Below, one piece after another: positions 492 to 61,503 of a stretch of 64,000 nucleotides of DNA. The notes under the pieces were generated by a model. The model made no database searches. It saw nothing but the letters and a program-made list of their open reading frames with translations, and was not told the DNA's origin. Positions within the stretch are counted from its first letter, which is position 1. Each line of letters opens with the position of its first letter. The DNA lies in contig CAYNKQ010000003.1 in the NCBI GenBank assembly GCA_964397855.1, positions 14,839 to 78,838 on the forward strand. The letters run 5' to 3'. Made by a program: the position numbers and the translations under genes. The stretch is from an uncultured Candidatus Saccharibacteria bacterium. Lineage in GTDB: Bacteria; Patescibacteriota; Saccharimonadia; Saccharimonadales; UBA7683.

Positions 492-1790
492 GTGCCAGAA
501 GTAAAACCTGCCGATATTCAAGCATTTGCATCTATTAAGGTAATTGGAGTTGGTGGAGCTGGCGGCTCTGCTGTTAACCGTATGGTTGACGCTGGCCTTA
601 AGGGTGTTCAGTTTACTGCAGTCAATACTGACGCGCAGGCGCTTTACCATTCTCGAGCCACTAATAAGATTCACATAGGAAAAGACACAACACGTGGTCT
701 TGGTGCTGGGGCTGATCCAACCATGGGTCAAAAGGCTGCCGAAGAATCGATCGATGAAATCAAAGAGGCGCTGACTGGCGCTGATATGGTGTTTATCACA
801 CTTGGCGCCGGTGGTGGCACTGGCTCTGGTGCAGCTCATGTTGTTGCAAAATTGGCTCGAGAAATGGAAATCCTTACCGTGGGCGTCGCTACGCGCCCAT
901 TTGCCTTTGAAGGTGAAAAGAGACGTAAAAATGCAGAATTTGCTATTGAAAGCCTCTCAAAGCATGTAGACACGCTTATAACTATTCCTAATGACCGCCT
1001 TCTTCAAACAATCGATAGAAACACGCCACTTCTTGAGGCATTCACTGTGGCTGACGATGTACTCCGACAGGGTGTGCAGGGCATCTCTGATCTTATAACT
1101 GAACACGGCTTGATTAACTTGGACTTTGCTGACGTTAAGTCGGTTATGAGTCAAGCTGGATCAGCTCTTATGGGTATTGGCCATGGAAGTGGCGAAAATC
1201 GTGCAGTTATTGCTGCCCAGCAAGCCATCGAGTCGCCTTTACTTGAAGTTTCGATTGATGGTGCTCGAGGCGTAGTTTTCAACATAACTGGTGGCAATGA
1301 TCTTTCTATGCACGAAGTTAACGAAGCTGCTGAGGTAATTACATCCGCAGTTTCTCCAGATGCTAATATTATATTTGGAGCAACTATTAAACCTGAAATG
1401 CAGGATAAAATTGACATCACAGTTATTGCGACCGGTTTCGACGCTGCATACTTTGCAAAGCGTGGTGCAACTACGAGCACAACTGATGACGAAGATGATG
1501 AGGAAGAGAGTTCGCTCTCAAGTTCACTCGGTGAGGTTGAAGGAGAAGTCGAAACAATCAACATGGATGAAGATACAAGCACCTCTACCGGTGCATCTAC
1601 TACAAATAACGACACAGATTCTTCTGAGGCAGAAACGCCATTCCATAAAAGTGACGATGTACCAAGTTCAAACATCTGGGCAAGTGATGACGACGATAAG
1701 TCTGAATCCGAAGAACACGATGTTCCCGCTTTTCTCAGAAGATTCCGCCGTAAAAAAACTACTGATTCAGACCAAAAAGACGAAGAATAG
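492..1790 (+). CDS. ftsZ: Cell division protein FtsZ
   Basis: 432 aa with the tubulin/FtsZ signature [13 protein letters not shown] and [22 protein letters not shown] lies just upstream of the GTG start. Long acidic D/E/S-rich linker and basic C-terminal tail. Confidence 0.95.
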
Positions 1791-1895
1791 TATTGCAAGT
1801 ACACTAGCATTAGCGTTATACTTGGAACGAAGTACGCTACAGGTGGTGTAAAACCAAGTGTTACTTAGAAAATTAACTAATATGTCGGAGAGTTC

Positions 1896-2357
1896 ATGAA
1901 GTGTCCACAGTGTCAAAGTGCAGATTCAAAAGTAGTAGAGTCACGAGATGTTGCTAGCGGTGAAAGTATTCGTAGACGACGCGAGTGCGAAAGCTGTAGT
2001 GCACGGTTTACAACCTACGAGCGTGTTGAACGACCAAATTTGATCGTTGTAAAAAAAGACAACACACGAGAAGTTTTTGATCGTACAAAAGTCCTCTGTG
2101 GAATTGAAAGAGCTTCGGAAAAAACTTCAATTTCAGCGCCCGAACGCGAAGATATGGTTGCACGTATTGAACGCAAGCTGTACGATTTAGGTAAGCCAGA
2201 AGTGAGGGCTGGAGACGTTGGAGAGCTGGTTATGGACGAACTAGCGAAAGCTGATGAAGTAGCTTATGTGCGCTTTGCAAGTGTGTATAGACGCTTCACA
2301 AGCATTAAGAGTTTTGAAGAGGGCTTAAGTGCACTTAAAGCTCGAAAAGACCAATAG
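1896..2357 (+). CDS. nrdR: Transcriptional repressor NrdR
   Basis: 153 aa. N-terminal zinc ribbon (CPQC...CESC) followed by an ATP-cone-like region. Located directly upstream of a ribonucleotide reductase gene. Confidence 0.94.
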   Translation: MKCPQCQSADSKVVESRDVASGESIRRRRECESCSARFTTYERVERPNLIVVKKDNTREVFDRTKVLCGIERASEKTSISAPEREDMVARIERKLYDLGKPEVRAGDVGELVMDELAKADEVAYVRFASVYRRFTSIKSFEEGLSALKARKDQ

Positions 2358-2535
2358 GGCAGTGTTAGTTATTGCCGTGTGCTTTTAACAAAAGACAGAA
2401 TTCTAAGAACTAAGATTTTTCATCTGTCGAAGACACGCGGGAGTGACTAGGTGGAGGGCATTCTTGCTCGCTGACGCTCTAACAAAAACCATATAAAACA
2501 AATTAAAAAAGAGGGAAACTAAGGAGGGGGTTGTT

Positions 2536-5328
2536 ATGGCACAAGCTACAGTGCTGGATATTCGACGTTACTTTACTAAAAAAGGTACAGACGCGTACGA
2601 AGAGTTCGAGTGGGTGAATCGGGATTCAAAAATTGATAATCCGATAACAGGAAAAGTTGCTTTTGAGCAAAAAGCAGTGGAATTTCCAGACACGTGGAGT
2701 CTTAACGCCATTAATATCGTAAGCCAGAAGTATTTTTGTGGTACTCCGGGCACAGCTGAGCGTGAATCAAGTCTTAAAACGCTTATCAACCGCGTTGCCG
2801 ACACTATTACTCGACATGGTGACCAAGAAGGTTACTTTGCCAGCAAAGATGAGGCTATTACATTCAACCAAGAGCTAAAGTATATTCTTGCTTCTCAGCG
2901 AGCAGCTTTTAACTCTCCGGTATGGTTCAACATTGGTGCGGCTTCTCGGTCGCAACAAGCGAGTGCTTGTTTTATTCTTGCAGTAGAAGACACAATGCCT
3001 TCAATTTTAAACTGGTATAAAGAAGAAGGAATGGTGTTTAAAGGTGGATCAGGCTCTGGTCTTAATATCAGCACAATTCGTTCAAGTTACGAAACTCTTG
3101 GCAAGAGTGCCGGTACCGCTTCTGGCCCACTTAGCTTTATGCGCGGTGCAGATAGCTCTGCTGGCGCAATTAAATCTGGTGGCAAAACTCGTCGTGCAGC
3201 CAAGATGGTTATTATGAATGTTAACCACCCTGACATTGAGGAGTTCATTTGGTGTAAGGCGATCGAAGAACGGAAAGCCCGCGTACTGCAAGAAGCTGGC
3301 TTTGATATGAGCCTTGATGGTAAAGATATCTTTAGTGTTCAATACCAAAATGCCAATAACTCTGTACGTGTCGATGACGCCTTTATGCGCGCAGTTGAAA
3401 AGAATGAAGACTACCAGCTAGTTGGTGTGACCGACGGCAAAGTTTACAAAACTATCAAGGCTCGGGATCTTTGGAGACAGATTGCCGAGAGTGCATGGGA
3501 ATGTGCGGATCCAGGATTACAGTTTGATACAACCATCAATCACTGGCACACATCACCTAACGCCGGCCGAATTAACGGTTCTAACCCATGTTCTGAGTAT
3601 ATGCACCTCGATAACTCCGCATGTAATCTTGCTTCAATCAACCTACTGAAATTTTTGAACGAAGACGGTACTTTTGATGTAGAAGCGTACAAGCATTCTA
3701 TTCAAGTTATCTTCACTGCTCAGGAAATTCTCGTTGGTTATTCGGAATATCCAACAGAAAGTATCACTAAGAACGCTAAAGCGTACCGAGAACTCGGTAT
3801 TGGCTACGCAAACCTTGGTGCAATGCTTATGGCTCAAGGTCTTCCGTATGATTCTGACGAAGGTCGCGCACAAGCAGCGGCTATCACTGCTGTACTTACT
3901 GGTCACTCGTACGCAACTTCAGCGCGGCTTGCAAAACAGGTTGGACCATTCGCTGGATTCAATAAAGATCGCGAAGGTATGATGAAGGTGCTTTCTCAGC
4001 ATCGTGATGCGGTTAGGGATATCGACGCTAGGCTTGTTGCTGAAGACCTGCTTTCTGCAGCTGCGGAATGTTGGGACGAAGCAGTTGAGCTGAGTGATCG
4101 CTACGGTGTAAGAAACTCTCAGGCATCAGTTCTTGCTCCAACAGGTACGATCGGCTTTATGATGGACTGTGATACTACCGGTATTGAGCCTGACTTTAGC
4201 CTTACTAAGTACAAAAAACTTGTTGGCGGTGGGAACATGGTGATCGTTAACCAAACGGTACCACGCGCGCTTCGAACTATGGGCTATACCCAAAACCAGA
4301 TCGAAGACATTGTGAAATACATTCACGAAAACAGCGGTGTTGTTGGTGCGCCCCACCTTAAAAACCAAGATTATGCAGTATTTGCTTGTGCGGTAGGTGA
4401 CAACTCAATTCACTACAATGGTCACGTAAAGATGATGGGTGCAGTACAACCGTTTATTTCTGGGGCAATTAGTAAAACGGTTAACATGCCAGTTGAATCT
4501 ACAGTTGAAGATATTGAAGAGCTCCACATGCTTTCATGGAAGCTTGGACTCAAGGCGGTTGCAATTTATCGCGACGGCTCGAAAGTCGCACAGCCACTTT
4601 CTTCTAAGAAAGATGAAGAAAAGAGTGAAGACGCACTTGATGCACACACGCCACAAACCGCAGAGCAGGTGACTGAGCAGCTTGTTGCACTGCAACCGCA
4701 TGCGCGACGAGAACTGCCTCGTAACCGCCAGGCACGTACCTTTGAGTTCAAAGTGGCAGACAGTAAGGGCTTTGTGACAGTTGGTGAGTACGATGACGGC
4801 AAGCCCGGGGAGATGTTCCTGAGAATCGCTAAGCAAGGGTCTACCCTGGCTGGCATTATGGATGCGTTTGCGATATCTGTGAGTCATGGCTTGCAGTACG
4901 GCGTGCCGCTTAAGAGTTACGTGAAAGCGTTTATCAATATGTCATTTGCGCCCGCCGGGATGACAGATGACGTCGAGATTCAGACTGCTTCAAGTTTGGT
5001 AGATTATATCTTCCGACGTCTCGCAAAAGAGTACTTGAGTCTTGATGATCAATTGGAACTTGGACTCACGAGTCTCAAAGAATTTGAAGCGGCGGCTCTA
5101 AACAACCAAACAAGTTTGCTCGAAGCCGAAGAGCAGCCTGTATTAACAGTGCCTGCTAATGTTCGTCAGGAACCTGTAGCTACGCAAGCAAGTAGTGTGC
5201 CTACTTCAAGCGTTTCTGCTGGTGGTGGCGAAACAGCACCACTGTGCTACAGCTGTGGTAATCAAACTCAGCGAGCTGGAAGTTGTTATGTATGCACTTC
5301 TTGCGGTACAACGAGTGGTTGTAGTTAG
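2536..5328 (+). CDS. nrdJ: Ribonucleotide reductase, class II (adenosylcobalamin-dependent) type
   Basis: 930 aa. Contains NPCSEY active-site-like motif, TGIEPDF, and the Cys-rich C-terminal tail CYSCGN..CYVCTSCG typical of monomeric class II RNRs. AAGGAGG RBS upstream. Confidence 0.9.
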   Translation: MAQATVLDIRRYFTKKGTDAYEEFEWVNRDSKIDNPITGKVAFEQKAVEFPDTWSLNAINIVSQKYFCGTPGTAERESSLKTLINRVADTITRHGDQEGYFASKDEAITFNQELKYILASQRAAFNSPVWFNIGAASRSQQASACFILAVEDTMPSILNWYKEEGMVFKGGSGSGLNISTIRSSYETLGKSAGTASGPLSFMRGADSSAGAIKSGGKTRRAAKMVIMNVNHPDIEEFIWCKAIEERKARVLQEAGFDMSLDGKDIFSVQYQNANNSVRVDDAFMRAVEKNEDYQLVGVTDGKVYKTIKARDLWRQIAESAWECADPGLQFDTTINHWHTSPNAGRINGSNPCSEYMHLDNSACNLASINLLKFLNEDGTFDVEAYKHSIQVIFTAQEILVGYSEYPTESITKNAKAYRELGIGYANLGAMLMAQGLPYDSDEGRAQAAAITAVLTGHSYATSARLAKQVGPFAGFNKDREGMMKVLSQHRDAVRDIDARLVAEDLLSAAAECWDEAVELSDRYGVRNSQASVLAPTGTIGFMMDCDTTGIEPDFSLTKYKKLVGGGNMVIVNQTVPRALRTMGYTQNQIEDIVKYIHENSGVVGAPHLKNQDYAVFACAVGDNSIHYNGHVKMMGAVQPFISGAISKTVNMPVESTVEDIEELHMLSWKLGLKAVAIYRDGSKVAQPLSSKKDEEKSEDALDAHTPQTAEQVTEQLVALQPHARRELPRNRQARTFEFKVADSKGFVTVGEYDDGKPGEMFLRIAKQGSTLAGIMDAFAISVSHGLQYGVPLKSYVKAFINMSFAPAGMTDDVEIQTASSLVDYIFRRLAKEYLSLDDQLELGLTSLKEFEAAALNNQTSLLEAEEQPVLTVPANVRQEPVATQASSVPTSSVSAGGGETAPLCYSCGNQTQRAGSCYVCTSCGTTSGCS

Positions 5329-6823: not shown

Positions 6824-9678
6824 AATTTAAAGCAAATAGCAGAAGAAGAGCACTAGAATACGAAAAGGATCTTGTTAAGAAATGGAAAAAGAATAAGACT
6901 TTTGAAAAGTCAGTACAAATGCGTCCGAAAGAAAATAGTTACGTATTTTACGATGGACCTCCGTTTATTTCAGGTTCACCGCACCACGGAACACTTCTGA
7001 GTTCGATAGTGAAAGATGTTGTTCCTCGTTATCAAACCATGAAAGGTAAAAGAGTAGAGCGCGTTTGGGGCTGGGATTGCCATGGCTTGCCAGCGGAAAG
7101 ATTCACTGAGAAGAAACTCGGTATTCACTCACGCCAAGAAGTTATAGAATACGGCATAGAAAAATATATTAACGCAACTCGCGAAAATATGATCCAAACC
7201 AGTAGCGAGTGGGAAGACGTAGTCGATAGAATTGGTCGCTGGGTTGAATTTAAGGGCGCCTACAAAACCATGGACAAAGACTACATGGAAAGTATCTGGT
7301 GGGCATTCAAAACTTTGTACGAAAAAGGCAAAATCTACGAAGGTGAAAAAGTACTCATGTACTGTATTTTGGACGGCACTCCGCTTTCTAAGGCCGAAGT
7401 CACTATGGATAGCGGTGCATATCAGGACGTTACCGATCCAAGCGTGTATGCAAAGTTTAAACTAGCCGGATCGGACGCAAGCCTGCTAGTTTGGACGACT
7501 GTCCCGTGGACATTGCTAGCAAATACTGGATTAGCAGTTGATAAAAAGGCTACATATGTTGAAGCCAAAGTAGGAAGTGAAACCTATATTACAGCTAAAG
7601 ACCTTCTAGAAGAGAGTCTTAAAAACGAAAAAGGTGAACTACCCAGCTATACGGTTGTCCGAGAATTCAAAGGGAAAGAACTGGTTGGTCAAAAATATGA
7701 ACCTTTCTACAAGGACTGGGGTAAAAAAGCTCACTATATTCATCATGCCGATTTTGTAAGTACTGAAGAAGGTACTGGAGTAGTGTCGCAAGCTCCTGCG
7801 TATGGTGAAGAAGATTTTGAACTTGCCAAGCAAAAAGACTTTCCAGTTATCTCGGTTATCGACAATAACGGTGTATTAACTGAGAGTGACTTTAAGGGTC
7901 GACAAGTGTGGGAGTGCAACAAAGAGTATGCAAAAGCTTTGCTAGAGCGAGATAAAGTGTACAGAATTCATTACTATCGTCACAGCTATCCGCACTGTCA
8001 TCGATGCGGCACTAAGTTAATCTACCGAGCTCATCCAAGCTGGTTTATGGACATAGAGGGCCAGCGGGAAAAGATGCTTGAAAAAAATGGCAATGTTGAA
8101 TGGTTCCCACGTCATGTAAAAAATGGTCGTTTTGCTAAGACTGTTGAAACTGCACCAGATTGGAATATTTCTCGTGATCGATTCTGGGCAACCGCAATGC
8201 CTGTTTGGAAGGGCACTGACAAAGACGGCAATGAGCATGTTAAAGTTATCGGTAGCTATGCTGAGCTTAAAGAGCTCTCGGGCAAAGAGCTCGATGATTA
8301 TCACCGTCCATGGGTGGACGACATTACGTTTGAAATTGACGGTGTAACATACACACGAATCGACAAAGTCATGGATAGCTGGTTTGAGGCTGGAAGCATG
8401 CCGTTTGCGCAGTTCCATTATCCATTTGAGAATAAAGAAAAGTTTGAAGCTAATTTTCCAGGTGACTTCATAGTCGAGTACATCGGTCAGGTTCGTGCCT
8501 GGTTTTACTATATGCACGCAATGAGCGTCGCACTATTTGGCGAAAATTCGTTTAAAAATGTGATCGTAACTGGTAACGTAGCTGGCAATGATGGTCGTAA
8601 GATGAGTAAAAGCTACGGTAATTACACCGATCCAAATGAACTTATGGACAAGTTTTCGGCAGATAGCCTAAGGTTCTTACTGGCCTCAAGTCCGCTTCTC
8701 AACGGCGAAGATTTTACTTTGCAAGACAAAGAGGTCGGTGACATTGCCCGCAAACTGAGTATGGTTTGGAATATGTACGACTTCTTTACAATGTACGCCG
8801 AAGTTGATGGATGGGAGTGGGATGGTAATCACGAAGACCCAACTCAGCTTTGCAAGAACCCGCTTGATACCTGGATCATCAGTCGTGTGCATCAATTAAC
8901 TCAAGAAGTTGAAAAACATATGGATGTATATGATATTCCAAATGCAATGAAACCAGTTCTACCATTCATAGAAGACGCTTCAAACTGGTACGTGCGCCGT
9001 TCTCGACGTCGCTTCTGGAAAAGTGAAGATGATAGTGATAAGAACGAAGCCTATAGGACGCTCCATTACATTCTGGTACAGCTCAGTATGGTCATAGCTC
9101 CGTTTACGCCATTTTTGGCGGAAGAACTCTATCAAAAACTCACTGGTGGTGAATCAGTTCACCTGCTTGATTGGCCAGAGGTTGGCCATGTGAATGAGCT
9201 GTTGATAAGTGATATGACCAAGCTCCGTGAATACGTAAATGAAGGTCTGAGTATACGCGCCCAGAACAAACGTAAGGTTCGCCAGCCACTCGCTTCAGTG
9301 ACAATCCCTGAAAACGGTACGGTATTCGATTTCGATGAAATTTTACAAGAAGAACTGAATGTAAAAGCAGTACAAGTTGGTGAATTTGCCCTAGACCTTG
9401 AACTAACTGATCACCTAAAACGTGAAGGACTTATGCGCGAAGTCATCCGCTTTGTTCAAAATGCCCGCAAAGACGCTGGTCTTAATGTTGATGATCGCAT
9501 ATATCTTTCACTCACAACGAATAATTTGGATCTGAAAAAGGCTATCGAAGAACACATGCAGACTATTGCAAATGAAACCCTCGCTACTAAATCTGGTGAA
9601 GCGACAGACGCCTATAATGTAACCGTTAAAGTTGAGGGCGAGGAGCTGAGCATCTCACTCAAGAAGGCAGAGAGCTAA
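6820..9678 (+). CDS. ileS: Isoleucyl-tRNA synthetase
   Basis: 952 aa class I aaRS with a HIGH-type motif (PHHGT), KMSKS, and a CP1 editing-domain-sized insertion. Confidence 0.95.
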   Translation: MKFKANSRRRALEYEKDLVKKWKKNKTFEKSVQMRPKENSYVFYDGPPFISGSPHHGTLLSSIVKDVVPRYQTMKGKRVERVWGWDCHGLPAERFTEKKLGIHSRQEVIEYGIEKYINATRENMIQTSSEWEDVVDRIGRWVEFKGAYKTMDKDYMESIWWAFKTLYEKGKIYEGEKVLMYCILDGTPLSKAEVTMDSGAYQDVTDPSVYAKFKLAGSDASLLVWTTVPWTLLANTGLAVDKKATYVEAKVGSETYITAKDLLEESLKNEKGELPSYTVVREFKGKELVGQKYEPFYKDWGKKAHYIHHADFVSTEEGTGVVSQAPAYGEEDFELAKQKDFPVISVIDNNGVLTESDFKGRQVWECNKEYAKALLERDKVYRIHYYRHSYPHCHRCGTKLIYRAHPSWFMDIEGQREKMLEKNGNVEWFPRHVKNGRFAKTVETAPDWNISRDRFWATAMPVWKGTDKDGNEHVKVIGSYAELKELSGKELDDYHRPWVDDITFEIDGVTYTRIDKVMDSWFEAGSMPFAQFHYPFENKEKFEANFPGDFIVEYIGQVRAWFYYMHAMSVALFGENSFKNVIVTGNVAGNDGRKMSKSYGNYTDPNELMDKFSADSLRFLLASSPLLNGEDFTLQDKEVGDIARKLSMVWNMYDFFTMYAEVDGWEWDGNHEDPTQLCKNPLDTWIISRVHQLTQEVEKHMDVYDIPNAMKPVLPFIEDASNWYVRRSRRRFWKSEDDSDKNEAYRTLHYILVQLSMVIAPFTPFLAEELYQKLTGGESVHLLDWPEVGHVNELLISDMTKLREYVNEGLSIRAQNKRKVRQPLASVTIPENGTVFDFDEILQEELNVKAVQVGEFALDLELTDHLKREGLMREVIRFVQNARKDAGLNVDDRIYLSLTTNNLDLKKAIEEHMQTIANETLATKSGEATDAYNVTVKVEGEELSISLKKAES

Positions 9679-10582: not shown

Positions 10583-10972
10583 ATGCAAATACCAACAGAT
10601 GCAGAATTTTCAATGCTTGTCGGCGAAGCGCTTGATCAACTACCGGAAAAGTACGTTTCGCGGCTAGAGAATGTGGTGATCACGTATGCCGATGAGCCAG
10701 ACCGGCATCAGCGAACAAAGCTAAAACTCAGAGGTCACCAAAGCCTTTTTGGGTTATACGAGGGAATTCCACTTACCAAAAGAGGAGCCAACTACAACCT
10801 GGTGCTTCCAGACAAAATTACGCTCTTTAAATTCCCGCTTTTCTATCACTCGAAAAATGAAGAAGATTTTAAAGCTCGGATAAAACACACCCTTTGGCAT
10901 GAGATTGCCCACTACTTTGGTCTGGATCATGATCGGATCCATGAACTAGAAAATAACCACTCTTTACAGTAG
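10583..10972 (+). CDS. Metallopeptidase-family protein (HExxH, zincin-like small protein)
   Basis: HEIAHYFG zinc-binding motif near the C-terminus. An N-terminal ...ALDQLPEKY...ENVVITYADEP pattern. The track ORF starts at 10556, but the ATG at 10583 is preferred. Confidence 0.65.
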   Translation: MQIPTDAEFSMLVGEALDQLPEKYVSRLENVVITYADEPDRHQRTKLKLRGHQSLFGLYEGIPLTKRGANYNLVLPDKITLFKFPLFYHSKNEEDFKARIKHTLWHEIAHYFGLDHDRIHELENNHSLQ

Positions 10973-54582: not shown

Positions 54583-55443
54583 ATGGAAAACAAATTCTCT
54601 ATAAAACAGTTCAACCAGCGTTTCCCTGATGACGCTGCTTGTCTCGAGGAAATCAAGCAACTCCGCTTTGGTGATGCCATAACTTGCCCCAAGTGTAACA
54701 AAGAGAACAAATTCTATCGGGTAACGGGTCGCTCAGCCTATGCTTGTAGCTTTTGTGGTCATCATATCTACCCTCTAAAAGGTTCGATCTTCGACCACTC
54801 CAGTACAGAACTTCGTCTATGGTTCTACGCCATCTACGTTATGGCTCAAACCCGCGCAGGTATTAGTGCTAAGCAGCTAGAACGCGAACTAGGCGTAACA
54901 TACAAGACTGCCTGGAGAATGTTCAACCAAATTCGCAAGCTTATGAGTGACGATGGAAGTATGCTTAGTGGCGAAGTTGAAGTAGATGAAGTCTATTTTC
55001 ACCCAAACCCCGCTAAACGGACCACAGCCCAAGCCCATAACAGTCAAGTAGTCTTTGGTATGGTAGAGCGAAAAGGCAGAGCGGTCGTAAAGCATGTTAA
55101 GAGCTCTGGTGTAAGGGTATTAACTAAAGAAATACATCACGGCATCGACCCCAAAGCCACTATATATAGCGACACCCATCGTTCCTACAAACATTTAACA
55201 AAGGCTGGCTACCTGCACCTAACCATTAATCACAGTAAGCAAGAGTACGTAAAAGGCGTAAGACATACCCAAAATGTCGAAAATCTTTGGAGTAACATTA
55301 AACGAGGCATTACTGGTGTTTATCGGCACGTTGATCCAAAGTACTTACAAAACTATGTTGATGAGTACGCTTTTCGCTATTCACACCGAGCTACACCAAA
55401 ATACATGTTTGATTTAATACTGAGTAATATAGCGAGGGACTAA
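54583..55443 (+). CDS. IS1595-family (ISXO2-like) DDE transposase
   Basis: N-terminal zinc ribbon CPKC...CSFCGH, then PLKGSIFDHSSTELRLWFYAIYVMAQTRAGISAKQLERELGVTYKTAWRMFNQIRKLM and EVDEVYF, characteristic of this family. Confidence 0.88.
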   Translation: MENKFSIKQFNQRFPDDAACLEEIKQLRFGDAITCPKCNKENKFYRVTGRSAYACSFCGHHIYPLKGSIFDHSSTELRLWFYAIYVMAQTRAGISAKQLERELGVTYKTAWRMFNQIRKLMSDDGSMLSGEVEVDEVYFHPNPAKRTTAQAHNSQVVFGMVERKGRAVVKHVKSSGVRVLTKEIHHGIDPKATIYSDTHRSYKHLTKAGYLHLTINHSKQEYVKGVRHTQNVENLWSNIKRGITGVYRHVDPKYLQNYVDEYAFRYSHRATPKYMFDLILSNIARD

Positions 55444-55596
55444 TTACTTAGATTTCTCAGCGGGCTTACTAGCCCTCTTGGGCTCTACGGCCCGTTTTAG
55501 TATTTTATTAAAGTCAGCTTCAGCACCTTTGCGTCCGCCAGCTTTAACTAAATCCTGTAACGGCTGATCTTTCAGTGGTTTCTTCTTTTTGGGCAT
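55444..55596 (-). CDS. Possible 50-aa Lys-rich small protein
   Basis: Minus-strand ATG at 55596 to TAA at 55444-55446 (MPKKKKPLKDQPLQDLVKAGGRKGAEADFNKILKRAVEPKRASKPAEKSK). Below the track length cutoff and the RBS is weak. Confidence 0.25.
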   Translation of the reverse strand: MPKKKKPLKDQPLQDLVKAGGRKGAEADFNKILKRAVEPKRASKPAEKSK

Positions 55597-55753
55597 AGTT
55601 TTATCTTACCACTTAGACGGTAAAAACCGCCAACTACGCCTTGATATATTGCCCTCATGGGCGAGGGCAATATATCGCTTGTGTCAATCTGTTAAATTTC
55701 GGATATAGTGGTACCTATCTTTATATAACTAGGGAGTAGGAGGGTTTGGCAAA

Positions 55754-56608
55754 ATGAAATTAGCTCAAGTTCATAAAGTAACCTACAAACAAAAAGAAAT
55801 ACTCGACCTTATATATAGCCATAGATTCTTAACCAGAATACAAATACAAGCATTCCTAAAACATAAAGACAAAAAGACGATTAACCTATGGCTTAAAGAC
55901 CTAAGGAGCAAAGACTACCTAAACTGGATCTACAACAAGGATCATTTCGTCGAGAAAACAAAGCCAGCCATCTACTACCTTGGTATTAACGGCATACGGC
56001 ACTTCAGCAACATTGACTTGTACCCAGCTACCGAACTTCGAAAACGTTACCGAGAACATGAACGCAGCCAAACCTTTATTGATCGCAGTTTGCTCTTGGC
56101 AGATTGTTGCCTCGATCTAGCTGACGAACGAAACGGCACCCATTACCTTAAAACCCGCTACTACTATGAAACCGATGCCGACTGTCGTAATGACCGCTAC
56201 TATGGATTTATCAAAGACAGTGAACTCATTAGCCCAGATTTGTGCTTTCACGTTGCACCGGACGAGGAGTACGTCCACCCTGATGAAATAGAGAGTAGCT
56301 TCTTGCTAGAGATCTTTGACGCCAGCCTGCCGCGCTACCGACTGCGCAACCGTCTCAAGGGCTACGTGCAGTACCTGGACGAAGAGCTCGACGACTGGGA
56401 GGCTGGAACTTGCGGTGATCCACCACCAACCATTTTGCTCGTCTGCGCCAACCTAACTGATCTCATATACGCTAAACGGCGAACCAGAGGACTTATCGCT
56501 GACATTTGGGACTACGATGATGAAGACAGGCCACAGATCCAATTCACCACTACCGACAAACTAAAGCAACGTGGAATACTAGCTGCAGAGATATGGGAGC
56601 AGGCCTAA
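55754..56608 (+). CDS. Replication-relaxation family protein (plasmid-type)
   Basis: 284 aa. The N-terminal winged-helix-like LTYKQKEILDLIYSHRFLTRIQIQAFL pattern resembles the replication-relaxation family from memory. Not verified by search. Confidence 0.6.
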   Translation: MKLAQVHKVTYKQKEILDLIYSHRFLTRIQIQAFLKHKDKKTINLWLKDLRSKDYLNWIYNKDHFVEKTKPAIYYLGINGIRHFSNIDLYPATELRKRYREHERSQTFIDRSLLLADCCLDLADERNGTHYLKTRYYYETDADCRNDRYYGFIKDSELISPDLCFHVAPDEEYVHPDEIESSFLLEIFDASLPRYRLRNRLKGYVQYLDEELDDWEAGTCGDPPPTILLVCANLTDLIYAKRRTRGLIADIWDYDDEDRPQIQFTTTDKLKQRGILAAEIWEQA

Positions 56609-56833: not shown

Positions 56834-58039
56834 ATGCAACAACTTTGTAACCTCGCCAACACCGGCACCAATATCGCCCTTATTATTGCGGCAGCGTTCG
56901 GCATCATAGCCGTGGCTAGCCTCATACTCTACCAACTTAAAACTGGCAAAACTTTCTCTAAAGGCTTCTTTGCGTTACTACTAGTTTTCGGTATTGTAGG
57001 CACATTACTCCTGGCACCAGCTGCTACGCACGCTGGTGGGGCTACAGATTGCCCTGATAGTTCTCAGACTAACGGTGACGGCAGTCAAACCTCTATAACT
57101 TGTCCAACAAACTGGGTAGTGGTACCGGGCAATCCAGCGTACAACACTAGCGACTTCTGTGTTATGAAATACTCCGCAAAAAACGTCGGTGGAACTGTAA
57201 CTGACACCCAGGATATCACTGATGAGGATGACAACGCACTGTTCTCTACAAACGTCTACTCGGGTGGCACCGCCACCTCGCAGGCTAGCGGCATACCATG
57301 GACTAATATTTCTCAAACAGATGCTATTACTGCCGCTGCGGCGGCTGCTCCAGGTGCGCACCTCCTGACTGAGAACGAATGGATGACGTTAGCACACAAT
57401 GTACTCGCTAACCCCGCCAACTGGTGTAATGCTGACGGCTCAGGCTGTGGTAATGCTCCTGGAACATCCGGCAAAGTCTTAGCCTCTGGTCATAACGATG
57501 ACGGTGATGCGTTTAGTAATGACTTTGGTGTCAATGGCCCACTCGATGCATCTACCGACGACTCCCAAGCGTGTTATGGTACGGTTACTCCTGGCGTCAA
57601 CACGCCATGTGGGAGTGAAGCTGGTACGCAAAAGCGGACCCTGGCACTCTCTAACGGTGAGGTACTCTGGGACTTAGTTGGTAATGTTGGGCAGTGGACG
57701 AGTGCAACTGAAACACGCGGTAACTTACCAAGTATTGGCGGCTCAGGTAGTCCATTTGAGTACAACCTCGATACGGGCTTTGGTTTGCCAACACCAGACG
57801 ACTGGGGTACTCTGGCATATATTAATCCGGCCATCCAAAATCCTACTGCTGCTAACTGGGGTGTAGCCCAGGGCCTCGGCATCCTGTACTCGGATTTCGA
57901 CTCTGGGTCTTCGACTCCTGTAGCATTCGCTCGGGGCGGTGCTTGGTTCCTTGGGCCGGTTGCCGGTGCCTTCACGCTGTCTCTCGGTGGTGAGCCGTCT
58001 GACTCCCCTCCGTTTGTTGGCTTCCGCTCTGCCTTGTAA
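56834..58039 (+). CDS. DGR target (variable) protein: membrane/secreted, with a C-terminal FGE-sulfatase / C-type-lectin-fold domain
   Basis: Two N-terminal hydrophobic segments. A C-terminal ...RGGAW...GFRSAL pattern typical of formylglycine-generating-enzyme-like DGR targets. The last 159 nt before the stop form the VR. Confidence 0.88.
   Translation: MQQLCNLANTGTNIALIIAAAFGIIAVASLILYQLKTGKTFSKGFFALLLVFGIVGTLLLAPAATHAGGATDCPDSSQTNGDGSQTSITCPTNWVVVPGNPAYNTSDFCVMKYSAKNVGGTVTDTQDITDEDDNALFSTNVYSGGTATSQASGIPWTNISQTDAITAAAAAAPGAHLLTENEWMTLAHNVLANPANWCNADGSGCGNAPGTSGKVLASGHNDDGDAFSNDFGVNGPLDASTDDSQACYGTVTPGVNTPCGSEAGTQKRTLALSNGEVLWDLVGNVGQWTSATETRGNLPSIGGSGSPFEYNLDTGFGLPTPDDWGTLAYINPAIQNPTAANWGVAQGLGILYSDFDSGSSTPVAFARGGAWFLGPVAGAFTLSLGGEPSDSPPFVGFRSAL
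57878..58036 (+). repeat. DGR variable repeat (VR)
   Basis: 159-nt alignment with 59688-59846. There are 16 mismatches and every one falls where the TR has A. Confidence 0.92.
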
Positions 58040-58170
58040 TGTCGCTTAATACTTTCTACTTGAACACTTAGCGCTTAAATGCTTTCTTCTTTAGCCCGAT
58101 TCCCGCCGTGCGGGACATCGGGGCCTCAGTGCCGTCAGGCACTCGGCTCAAATTTTGTAAAATAGACTAT

Positions 58171-58551
58171 ATGACTACAACATCTTCAGCTAAAACTGCG
58201 CCAGATGAATTGCTTATCTACACCAAGATGGTGGATTTCCTCAGCTGGCTGTTCCCAGTTCTCAATACTTTTCCAAAAAACCAACGCATGGTTATGTGCC
58301 AGCAAATTAGTAGTAGTGCACTGGACTGTCTCCGGCTCATTGTCAGTGCTCGCAACGCTCGTTCACCATCTAAGCGCTCTGGCTTACTGTTTGAGCTGAA
58401 TGTAGAGCTAGAGGTTCTGCGTAAACTACTTTCAGTTGCCCATAGCATCGGTTTCCTCAGCGCTAAACGGACTGAGAATGGCATGAAGCAACTGCTGGAA
58501 CTTGGTAAAATGTGCGGCGGTTGGATTAAACGCTACGATCAGGCGGGGTAA
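58171..58551 (+). CDS. avd: DGR accessory variability determinant (Avd-like four-helix-bundle protein)
   Basis: About 126 aa from the ATG at 58171. Helical and basic, positioned between VR and RT. The track ORF start (58108) lies inside the VR-flanking hairpins and is unlikely. Confidence 0.78.
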   Translation: MTTTSSAKTAPDELLIYTKMVDFLSWLFPVLNTFPKNQRMVMCQQISSSALDCLRLIVSARNARSPSKRSGLLFELNVELEVLRKLLSVAHSIGFLSAKRTENGMKQLLELGKMCGGWIKRYDQAG

Positions 58552-59629
58552 TATCTTTATACTGCTGATAGAGCTTTAGAATCAGTTGATTTGATTGTCG
58601 AGGGCTGGCATGCATGACGTGTGCAACCCATGAATAGAAGACTACTTGCAAGTCTTCTTTTGCAAGGGTACCTTTATGATATTGTCGCAACATCTGTTTC
58701 CAGCGTTTCTTAATATGTTTTACGCTACTACTTCGGACACGAATTTTATGTCGCCATATGACATAACCAACAAACTCCACGCCAAGGTAAGCCGGGAGTA
58801 ACCGAGTTTTACGAGGGTGTACCGTGAGACACAGTTCATCATGCAAAAAAGCAGTAATTTGCCTTTGCCATTCAAGAAGCTGCTGCTTACTATTATGAAC
58901 TAGCATCAGGTCATCCATGTAGCGGATGTAGCGTTTTACTTTGAGGGCACGCTTGATATATGCGTCTATTTCGTGCAGGTAAATGTTGCCGAATATCTGG
59001 CTGGTTAGGTTGCCGATAGGAATGCCTCGAGCACCTCGCGTGTGGTACGGTGCACCAGGATCAAAAAGGTGGTCATGTTCATCACCACTCTGATAGGAAT
59101 CAATAATCGTATCGAGTGTACTCAGAAGCATAGGATCAGAAATCTTCTTTCTTAAAACACGCTTCAGTACCTCATGGTTTATGCTGGCATAGTATTTAGA
59201 GACGTCTACATGGACTATATATAGTGGCTGGTCAGTTTGCCAGCGAATAAAATGCTGCATGCGTTTTTGAGCGGCATGCCCACCCTTTCCCGTGCGGCAG
59301 GCGTAAGAATCATGAATCATGCATGGTTCGTATACATCATTTAGTACCTTGCAAATCGCATGGTGGACGATACGATCACGGAAGTGTGGTGCGTCGATGA
59401 GTCGTTTTTTAGGATCTTCAATTATAAAACGTCGGTGAGGTTTGGGCTGGTAGGTCGTGCTGCGTAACTCTTTTTGGAGTACAAGCAGGTTCTCAATACG
59501 ATTGTAATTAAAAGAGGCCGCATAGGTACGATAGCGTTTACCCTTAGCTGTCCCATAAAAACCTTTTTCTAGTGCCGTAAGTGATGTGAAGTGATCATCT
59601 GGCAAGGTATTTTTCTCTGGTATTTGCAT
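58526..59629 (-). CDS. DGR-type reverse transcriptase
   Basis: 367 aa. RT motifs include YMDD (IRYMDDLMLV) and the DGR-hallmark IGNLTSQ. It lies on the strand opposite to VR, avd and TR, and its 3' end overlaps the avd 3' end by 26 nt. Confidence 0.93.
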   Translation of the reverse strand: MQIPEKNTLPDDHFTSLTALEKGFYGTAKGKRYRTYAASFNYNRIENLLVLQKELRSTTYQPKPHRRFIIEDPKKRLIDAPHFRDRIVHHAICKVLNDVYEPCMIHDSYACRTGKGGHAAQKRMQHFIRWQTDQPLYIVHVDVSKYYASINHEVLKRVLRKKISDPMLLSTLDTIIDSYQSGDEHDHLFDPGAPYHTRGARGIPIGNLTSQIFGNIYLHEIDAYIKRALKVKRYIRYMDDLMLVHNSKQQLLEWQRQITAFLHDELCLTVHPRKTRLLPAYLGVEFVGYVIWRHKIRVRSSSVKHIKKRWKQMLRQYHKGTLAKEDLQVVFYSWVAHVMHASPRQSNQLILKLYQQYKDITPPDRSV

Positions 59630-59687
59630 GTGCAGTATAGAGTATAAGCGTTATACTCTGATATGGTGGGCTAACGGTGCACATAAT

Positions 59688-59846
59688 GGCATCCTGAACT
59701 CGGATTTCGACTCTGGGTCTTCGACTCCTGTAGCATTCAATCGGGGCGGTGCTTGGAACAATGGGCCGAATGCCGGTGCCTTCACGCTGAATCTCGATAA
59801 TGAGCCGTCTGACTCCAATCCGTTTGTTGGCTTCCGCTCTGCCTTG
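59688..59846 (+). repeat. DGR template repeat (TR)
   Basis: Invariant copy of the VR. The variable positions are the adenines of AAC/AAT/GAT codons in the VR reading frame. Confidence 0.92.
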
Positions 59847-60070
59847 GCATACCAGATTACGCGAGATGATAGTTTATGTGTTACGCGTGGCTATCCAGTG
59901 CTCTTGGTATTCGCCTGTTATCCACCAGTCATGCAGCCGTATATTCGGCACATGACAAATATATACAGAGGTATGCGACTGCTTTTACGAGCTTTTGCAT
60001 ACCTCGCATAGATTGATCCCTGAGTTTTTGTTATAGAGTAATCGTCAATTTTTTATTTATACTCACCGAG

Positions 60071-60147: not shown

Positions 60148-61503
60148 ATGACCGATAGTGGATCACATACGCACGAGTCAGCAGCTTCTAGCGGCATTGA
60201 CTTGCCCGCTATGGATTTTGCTGCGCCCTTAGAGGGTGTAGCAGAGGACCTGTTCAAGTCCGAGCGCGTTGCGTTCGATTTTGAACGGTTTGAGCAGCGA
60301 CAAGGTGTAGTCTCAGATATTGTCGAAAGGCATGGGGGCAGCAAAGACGCTACCGAGATGGTACGCGCACTGAACGAAAAATTTAAAGAATGGGATGATG
60401 ATTTCGGTATCTCATACTTATATATTTCGGGCGTAGACTTTTCTTCCTCTTCTGAGCCATTAGAATTTCATGGTAAAGCGCAATTTCTGGCATTCTCTGG
60501 TAACGATGCACCAAATTGTGATTTTGAAAATGCTGACTTAACAGGTGCTGTATGGGTTGGTACGTATGCACCTGGCAGTAACTTTAGAGAAGCAACACTG
60601 AGCCATGCCCTCTTCAATTTCTGTGACCTAAGTGGGAGTGATTTTACGCGGGCAACCGCATATGATATTGGACTCAATTTTGCTAGAATCGATGCAATAA
60701 AAAGCAGAGGAGCAACGTTTGCTGGCGCGTACATGATGTTTACTCGTGGCTTGGTTGCCAAGACGCTACTTGAAGGCGGCGACTTTTCGTCAGCTCGAAC
60801 ACACGTAACTGACCTAATTGACGGAACGGGCGTAGCATCGGAAGACTCGGCTGGTATTATGGCGGCACGATTCAATACGGGTAATCAGACTGAAGATGTA
60901 AAACTTCGCCAAATTGTACGACAATTGCGAGCCGCTAAAGTCTTCAACGGTGATGAATACATAGGCCAACTCGTAAGCGGACAGCGCTTACCTGGTAGAC
61001 TGCTCAATAACGTCAACTTGCGCGATGCCCGACTTACGGGTAGCGAATTTGAGGCAGGGGTTTGGAACAAAGTGCATGCACCAGGGGTAGGGCTTAGAAA
61101 TGCAAGAATTGCTGGCTTAACAATTGCAAGTTCAAAACTTGATGATGCCGATACGGAGGGCCTCTGGGCTCCTGCGGTCGCGGTATTTAACACCTCGGTT
61201 AAAAATATCGAGTTTGATAATAATATCGCAGGTGGTTTGTTTGCAAATTGTGACATGACAGGTGTGCAATTTAACGAGCGAGCGAGCCTTGGCGGTGCGC
61301 TTGTTGTGGGTGGTAGACCACCTCGTGGGCTAGACCCTGAGGTTGCATCAATGGTGCGTGTCCTAGAAGTTGGTCAAATGCCACCAAAGGCCATGGAACT
61401 TGTTGCGGGTGCATCTCGGTGGTTCGCTGTTCAGGCTAATCAGAGTGCGGAGCTTAGTAGTGGTGCGTCAGATCTGTCGGGCACAACTAATGAGCTCCAA
61501 TAA
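60148..61503 (+). CDS. Pentapeptide-repeat protein
   Basis: 451 aa with two long runs of A(D/N)LXX-type pentapeptides (ADLTG AVWVG TYAPG SNFRE ATLSH ALFNF CDLSG SDFTR ...). Confidence 0.8.
   Translation: MTDSGSHTHESAASSGIDLPAMDFAAPLEGVAEDLFKSERVAFDFERFEQRQGVVSDIVERHGGSKDATEMVRALNEKFKEWDDDFGISYLYISGVDFSSSSEPLEFHGKAQFLAFSGNDAPNCDFENADLTGAVWVGTYAPGSNFREATLSHALFNFCDLSGSDFTRATAYDIGLNFARIDAIKSRGATFAGAYMMFTRGLVAKTLLEGGDFSSARTHVTDLIDGTGVASEDSAGIMAARFNTGNQTEDVKLRQIVRQLRAAKVFNGDEYIGQLVSGQRLPGRLLNNVNLRDARLTGSEFEAGVWNKVHAPGVGLRNARIAGLTIASSKLDDADTEGLWAPAVAVFNTSVKNIEFDNNIAGGLFANCDMTGVQFNERASLGGALVVGGRPPRGLDPEVASMVRVLEVGQMPPKAMELVAGASRWFAVQANQSAELSSGASDLSGTTNELQ

Follow-up and report, generated by a model that had tools for sequence, protein, structure and literature searches.

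A diversity-generating retroelement with an inverted reverse transcriptase gene and a candidate divergent promoter core, typical of its Saccharibacteria/Patescibacteria lineage

Diversity-generating retroelements (DGRs) in which the reverse transcriptase (RT) gene lies on one strand and the template repeat (TR), the variable repeat (VR) and the target gene lie on the other were described in 2012 by Schillinger et al. as Group 4, with examples from Shewanella baltica OS155, Vibrio sp. RC586 and Photobacterium angustum S14 (PMC3521204). The same authors stated that the mRNA for the RT and the RNA serving as template need not be one transcription unit (PMC3521204). RT-inverted elements were noted again by Wu et al. 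2018 (PMC5758913, section 22), are listed as rare by MyDGR (PMC6602519) and appear in Yan et al. 2019 as the RT-inversed cassette G5, which is >20-fold rarer than the canonical arrangement (PMC6642488). In the literature, this layout is a known minority class. In the DGR of phage BPP-1 (mtd-avd-TR-brt), in contrast, all parts are on one strand, and TR and brt are separated by a structured spacer. Here, we analyzed a DGR from an uncultured Candidatus Saccharibacteria bacterium that is contained in a 64,000-nt stretch of contig CAYNKQ010000003.1, hereafter called the window, and in which the RT gene is antisense to all other parts of the cassette.

The window carries a complete DGR that belongs to a Saccharibacteria/Patescibacteria lineage. 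It combines a DGR-type RT (with a [LIV]GxxxSQ motif 4 and YxDD), an adenine-specific TR/VR pair and Avd, in the order target(VR) >, avd >, < RT, followed by the TR-containing RNA >. The parts of the cassette are as follows:

56834..58039, + strand: target gene, an open reading frame (ORF) of 401 aa with a hydrophobic N-terminal segment and the VR at its C-terminus
57878-58036, + strand: VR, aligned to the TR without gaps and ending 3 nt ahead of the target stop codon
58171..58551, + strand: avd (Pfam bAvd, 2.8e-21; NCBIfam DivGenRetAVD, 90 bits with a cut-off of 80)
58526..59629, - strand: RT gene, 367 aa (Pfam RVT_1, 1.1e-20), antisense to TR, VR and avd
58526..58551, both strands: convergent 3' overlap of RT and avd, 26 nt
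59630-59687: RT-TR spacer, 58 nt from the RT start (59629) to the TR start
59639..59659, both strands: perfect palindrome with a 9-bp stem, AGAGTATAA-GCG-TTATACTCT, its arms being two predicted outward-facing -10 boxes
59641..59646, - strand: TATACT of the left arm, 11 nt ahead of the RT ATG; predicted to be the RT promoter's -10 box
59652..59657, + strand: TATACT of the right arm, 6 nt ahead of the template RNA; predicted to be the -10 box from which that RNA is transcribed
59688-59846, + strand: TR, with AAY codons at the variable sites

The TR/VR alignment extends over 159 nt, and all 16 of its 16 mismatches fall on adenines of the TR on the + strand, mostly in AAY codons. The motif at the TR 3' end was found twice in the window, once in the VR and once in the TR, and the window holds a single VR and a single TR. 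The RT carries the DGR-type motifs IGNLTSQ (I205-Q211) and YMDD (Y237-D240), both invariant in an alignment of 37 homologues (A1); 5633 homologues were found at E<=1e-20, and no NCBIfam family reached its cut-off with the RT. Apart from the inverted RT the features of the element are normal for a DGR, as in Group 4 and G5. Given the known DGR mechanism, the position of the TR/VR differences at + strand adenines means that the template RNA is of + sense, opposite to the RT, and with an RT mRNA of - sense the two must be separate, divergent transcripts. An earlier note on this DNA had drawn the same conclusion from the adenine-specific changes, and the strand arrangement that it described, including the 58-nt gap, the 26-nt overlap and the palindrome, was recovered in full.

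Relatives of the element were collected with an RT alignment as query, which yielded 160 loci, 80 from species-representative genomes and 80 from metagenomes. TR orientation was scored by the A- versus T-bias of the repeat mismatches and by the strand matched by an RNA model of the TR-flanking region (R1, see below), and the RTs were placed in a rough neighbor-joining (NJ) tree. In 67 of the 160 loci, the TR lay directly upstream of the RT gene and on the opposite strand. All 67 fell into one clade of 77 leaves without a single co-oriented member, the remaining ten leaves being contigs too short to score. Outside this clade, 50 loci were co-oriented and one (L079) was inverted; the sister group of the clade (L031, L038, L055 and L058) is co-oriented. 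At RT identities of at least about 44%, the TR of every scorable locus ran antisense to the RT gene; measured from the longest RT ORF called, it lay 8-90 bp upstream (in three loci, this ORF call extends into the TR). The named loci in the same identity range belonged nearly all to Candidatus Saccharibacteria or other Patescibacteria. In most clade members, avd is convergent with the RT gene, with 3' overlaps of 4-71 nt. The confinement of 67 inverted loci to a single RT clade devoid of co-oriented members indicates that the layout is old and inherited and is not a local accident.

Several loci differ from the window in the arrangement of their parts. L079, from a Planctomycetota metagenome-assembled genome, is an independent case of an antisense TR (7512-7638), which here lies downstream of the RT; the locus has two VRs, and its RT stands among those of co-oriented DGRs in the tree. 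In L003, L005, L006 and L087, as well as in L085 and L086 according to the RNA-model match, the TR is antisense to the RT, whereas the VR shares the strand of the RT, as does avd in the three loci that were scored for it (L003, L005 and L006). The placement of TR and VR on opposite strands in the L003/L005/L006/L087 subclade is a second rearrangement inside the inverted clade. L028 (RT 53% identical) has an RT, the region upstream of which is without TR or RNA domain and resembles unrelated coding sequence, and its avd match is truncated. L028 may be a decayed cassette.

The earlier note had called the architecture atypical. This holds in comparison with BPP-1 and does not hold otherwise: RT-inverted DGRs have been published since 2012, and in its own RT lineage, with 67 loci, the layout is the rule. 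A survey of the DGR catalogs, proposed in the note itself, found the orientation already listed, though as a minority class, so that this point loses much of its interest. The strand layout is already known and is ordinary for its group, not a one-off oddity; the window element is a further RT-inverted DGR, typical of its own lineage. The note had also suggested that the layout may reflect an inversion. This survives only if the event is ancient and lies at the clade's base; it is most simply pictured as an inversion of the RT in an ancestor with the order avd-RT-TR. A search for inverted repeats as inversion scars around the RT gene, a check named in advance, gave only short imperfect pairs of chance quality. 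The hosts of Group 4 are Gammaproteobacteria, whereas the near relatives found here are Saccharibacteria/Patescibacteria, and the inversion in the window clade is therefore probably independent of the one in Shewanella, Vibrio and Photobacterium. The papers on Group 4 and G5 hold no description of a shared palindromic -10 region, a convergent avd overlap or flanking RNA elements. The arrangement B3 of Wu et al., TR-(avd)-RT (PMC5758913), was considered as a counterpart. It resembles the window in being associated with the candidate phyla radiation (CPR) and in having one component on the opposite strand and hence at least two transcription units (example L055). However, it was rejected because B3 has a reversed avd between co-oriented TR and RT; the window has a reversed RT, and its avd is co-oriented with the TR and lies beyond the RT 3' end.

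In the next step, we considered the spacer between the RT gene and the TR. The window contains seven different perfect palindromes whose stems measure 9 bp or more, versus 2.2 expected from first-order Markov simulations, and the prior chance of such a palindrome in a given 58-nt spacer is roughly 0.002. Both arms are conserved in relatives. Clade-wide, the spacers follow the pattern AGTATA...TATA(C/A)T. Most loci have it contracted to one box of 8 bp (AGTATACT or AGTATAAT), whereas a loop of 5-20 nt splits it into two halves, still inverted, in the window and some other loci. On the TR strand, TATA(C/A)T precedes by 4-6 nt the conserved (A)UGGU that opens the leader duplex of the template RNA across the clade. 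On the RT strand, 37 of 54 unique spacers have a TATACT-type box 4-16 nt (mode 6-7) ahead of the RT start and lack a Shine-Dalgarno sequence; the window has a second TATACT 4 nt ahead of the RT ATG. Since the single-box form cannot fold as a hairpin, the conserved feature is a DNA motif and not an RNA stem. The simplest reading of the palindrome is that of two -10 elements placed back to back, which would make up a shared divergent promoter core, and the RT mRNA would then be leaderless or nearly so.

Other genes of the window show a similar configuration. Box-to-ATG spacings like that of the RT gene were found at further genes without a Shine-Dalgarno sequence, starting at 10583, 13968(-), 15819, 21314(-), 58171 (avd) and 60148. 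The gene at 60148, which encodes a pentapeptide-repeat protein downstream of the cassette, has a perfect TTGACA-16-TATAAT promoter 10 nt ahead of its ATG, and avd has TGTAAAAT 7 nt ahead of its ATG and no Shine-Dalgarno sequence. Judged by these spacings, avd, the pentapeptide-repeat gene and several of the other genes lacking such a sequence look leaderless; most genes of the window have clear AGGAGG-type sites. Symmetric bidirectional bacterial promoters, which the predicted arrangement resembles, have by definition start sites 7-25 bp apart (Warman et al. 2021, via PMC10268837). The single AGTATACT box of most relatives, with predicted start sites about 21 bp apart, lies within this range. 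The boxes of the window differ in being 5 bp apart with predicted starts about 30 bp apart, and they would thus constitute back-to-back promoters instead of a single shared -10 element.

The template RNA itself was analyzed by comparison and by folding. About 160 nt 3' of the TR are conserved on the TR-sense strand across relatives. Alignment A2 comprised 22 loci of the wider clade, with the window's own subclade left out, and served to build model R1. The consensus fold of A2 has 27 pairs, 19 of which show compensatory changes. Searched against the 64-kb window, R1 gave one match only, at 59840-59987 (+), with 32.3 bits and E=3e-7. A model made from other loci thus finds a single RNA domain, on the + strand and directly 3' of the TR, and thereby backs the + sense of the TR RNA independently of the adenine bias. 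The elements of the RNA in the window are:

59664..59677, + strand: 5' leader of the template RNA, UGGUGGGCUAACGG, pairing with 59912-59927 in a duplex that bridges the TR (minimum free energy (MFE) fold)
59847..60005, + strand: 3' domain of the template RNA (R1 match, covariation, MFE fold)
59846-59854/59905-59915, + strand: P1, 3' domain
59868-59895, + strand: P2 hairpin, 3' domain, just past the TR
59912-59927, + strand: duplex strand, partner of the leader
59928-59956, + strand: P3 hairpin, followed by GACAAAUA (59954-59961)
59968-60005, + strand: P4 hairpin, 3' domain

In the related loci, R1 gave 62 matches in 61 loci, all antisense to the RT; RT-sense (+) matches were obtained only in three co-oriented DGRs (L045, L047 and L040), where they lie between TR and RT, the classical spacer position. 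In the model-fitted alignment of 50 R1 matches (A3), 95.1% of the cells pair versus 72.6% in shuffles and 31-46% with the partners slid, and changes on both sides were seen in 24 of the 27 pairs, including all ten pairs of P2. The 13-bp duplexes between leader and 3' domain are clearly unlike in sequence from locus to locus; cognate strands nevertheless pair with a mean of -16.2 kcal/mol versus -12.3 kcal/mol for non-cognate ones, a value reached in none of 2000 permutations. For the window, the MFE and centroid folds both recover the leader duplex, P2, P3 and P4. A scan of the whole window against Rfam at gathering thresholds gave no matches, so the RNA flanking the TR is not a curated family. 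Read from its sequence, the template RNA is a self-contained gene with a predicted promoter box, a leader, the TR and a covarying 3' domain. One locus, L017, carries a second, weaker R1 match (27.8 bits, 1277-1451 on the - strand) about 1 kb from its main one, which may be a second or degenerate 3' domain. In L105 (about 2956-3280), the 3' domain (match 2956-3142) and the TR, which ends near 3280, are set apart by about 140 nt of inserted sequence.

The window element shares with BPP-1 a target with C-terminal VR, Avd, TR, a DGR-type RT and, judged by its TR/VR differences, adenine-specific mutagenesis. The BPP-1 template RNA has a segment upstream of the TR that pairs downstream, an Avd-binding stem-loop of about 9 bp just downstream of the TR, and a further stem-loop followed by adenosines (bioRxiv 10.1101/2023.10.23.563531). 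Such elements position Avd and RT on the RNA of the Bordetella phage DGR (Handa et al., bioRxiv 10.1101/2023.10.23.563531), and they have been predicted in 207 other DGRs, including ones from CPR bacteria (section 10 of the same work). In the window, the duplex bridging the TR is the counterpart of the BPP-1 'cPRT Stop' duplex, P2 that of the Avd-binding stem-loop, with an Avd contact suggested by this architecture, and P3 with GACAAAUA that of the stem-loop followed by adenosines. By analogy, the 3' domain is equivalent to the canonical TR-RT spacer. It differs in that the RT gene is inverted and upstream of the TR, so that the spacer-equivalent domain points away from the RT gene. Furthermore, the upstream strand of the duplex is provided by an intergenic leader here and by the avd 3' end in BPP-1. 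The agreement of the TR-flanking elements with those of canonical DGRs lends no support to the idea, also put forward in the earlier note, of a different way of coupling the RT to its template; the coupling looks conventional, with the components acting in trans.

Gene identities, strand arrangement, adenine-specific TR/VR differences, clade-wide conservation of the layout and RNA covariation are the observations on which the following mechanism is built; the use of the promoters, the ends of the transcripts, translation without a leader, contacts of the proteins with the RNA and present-day activity we infer from the sequence. The RT gene and the template-RNA gene would be back-to-back transcription units on a shared 58-bp control region. 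The left arm of the palindrome would drive a leaderless RT mRNA leftwards and the right arm, in the rightward direction, a non-coding RNA of about 340 nt (about 59664-60005), which comprises leader, TR and structured 3' domain and in which the leader would pair with the 3' domain across the TR. RT and Avd, each translated from its own message, would then bind the template RNA in trans and copy the TR with errors at adenines, and the cDNA would replace the VR. We consider it likely that the two units share the region and that RNA, Avd and RT act in trans in this manner.

A number of results weigh against this proposal. Neither predicted promoter has a good -35 hexamer, and in the spacer a consensus promoter scan picked up no more than a weak site (9/12, 59658-59687 (+)) and left the TATACT boxes uncalled. 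The folding energy of the whole template RNA is no better than that of shuffles (z = -1.1), so that the support for the structure comes from covariation, and A3 was fitted to the model, which favors structure. P4 of the window has no following U-run, unlike in the wider clade, and the 3' end of the template RNA is therefore uncertain. With filters off, R1 found nothing better than E=1.6 in positions 1500-5000 of BPP-1, so the likeness to the BPP-1 elements is one of architecture and not of detectable sequence homology. Finally, the RT tree is only a rough NJ tree and the E-values of R1 are approximate.

The inverted layout could stem from an inversion of the RT gene that happened locally and recently, or from an assembly error, confined to this genome, with a cassette that is possibly crippled. 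The departure from BPP-1 and most cataloged DGRs (PMC5758913) would fit such an event, as would the IS1595-type transposase and the Replic_Relax gene just upstream (54583-56608). However, the layout is shared by 67 independent loci of one RT clade from different assemblies and samples, with RT identities of 36-83% that exclude copies of a single contig. In addition, no inverted repeats surround the RT gene, its ORF is intact with all catalytic motifs present, and the VR departs from the TR at adenines only. We regard this explanation as extremely improbable.

It is also conceivable that the TR has no promoter of its own and that the template RNA forms the last part of a long + strand transcript reading through from the promoter of target or avd, antisense across the RT gene, the palindrome serving as an RNA hairpin or processing site. 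The 9-bp palindrome could indeed fold as RNA, both TATACT boxes lack a good -35 hexamer, and the promoter/terminator scan predicted no intrinsic terminator past avd or in the RT antisense strand near the overlap, nor at the avd/RT overlap itself. Yet the single 8-bp AGTATACT/AGTATAAT box of most relatives cannot form a hairpin and still keeps its distances to the RNA leader and the RT start. Moreover, the covarying duplex has its upstream strand starting 6 nt past the box, so no RNA element needs more upstream sequence, and an antisense RNA of 1.1 kb would pair with the RT mRNA. We think read-through unlikely, and a role of the palindrome mainly as an operator for a dimeric regulator of both divergent units, with an incidental likeness to -10 boxes, is slightly less likely still. 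The perfect dyad with 9-bp arms is more than two -10 hexamers need, and the flanking AG/CT is conserved too (AGTATA...TATACT), as an operator would have it; against this, the spacing of the arms in relatives varies from full overlap in the 8-bp box to loops of about 20 bp, which is hard to fit to one dimeric geometry, the cassette has no conserved regulator gene, and TATACT boxes occur at equal distance from the start codon at unrelated genes of the window.

If the two back-to-back units do share the symmetric -10 region, RNA polymerase would bind it one way at a time, so that a given initiation would make the leaderless RT message or the template RNA but not both. In this way, the palindrome might tune or switch DGR activity, and the inversion might have been kept for that reason, although we put this forward only tentatively. 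A ratio-setting or switching promoter device of this kind is not described in the DGR catalog papers PMC3521204, PMC5758913, PMC6602519 and PMC6642488. Separate transcription of RT and template from opposite strands has been published since 2012, and this finding by itself adds little. What is added is that a large Saccharibacteria/Patescibacteria DGR clade has this layout as its stable, inherited hallmark, that an autonomous template-RNA gene is defined, and that the palindrome can be read as a predicted divergent promoter core. The element offers an uncomplicated natural example of an RT and an Avd that have to locate their template RNA in trans. Its compact RNA of about 340 nt and its 58-bp control region should be useful for reconstituting CPR DGRs or for DGR-based mutagenesis with separately expressed parts.

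Some further features of the window accompany the cassette. The target protein gave a weak match to Pfam FGE-sulfatase (E=0.0049, 17 bits, under the cut-off of 23.3). About 55 nt past the VR, between the target stop codon and avd, the sequence contains GC-rich inverted repeats:

58093..58145, + strand: CCCGAT..CCCGCCGTGCGGG..ATCGGGG, then AGTGCC-GTCA-GGCACT

These are possibly a hairpin/cruciform of the type that follows the initiation of mutagenic homing (IMH) site in other DGRs, or a terminator; no T-run follows them, and they were not called by the promoter/terminator scan. A 127-aa ORF at 59628-60011 (+) covers the TR and its 3' domain and is most likely no gene, being a by-product of the TR preserving the target reading frame. 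The scan of the window for tRNA and tmRNA genes yielded none. Directly upstream of the target gene, at 54583-56608, an IS1595-family transposase (DDE_Tnp_IS1595, 1.2e-35) and a Replic_Relax protein (8.5e-14) are encoded, and the DGR cassette may lie in or beside mobile DNA.

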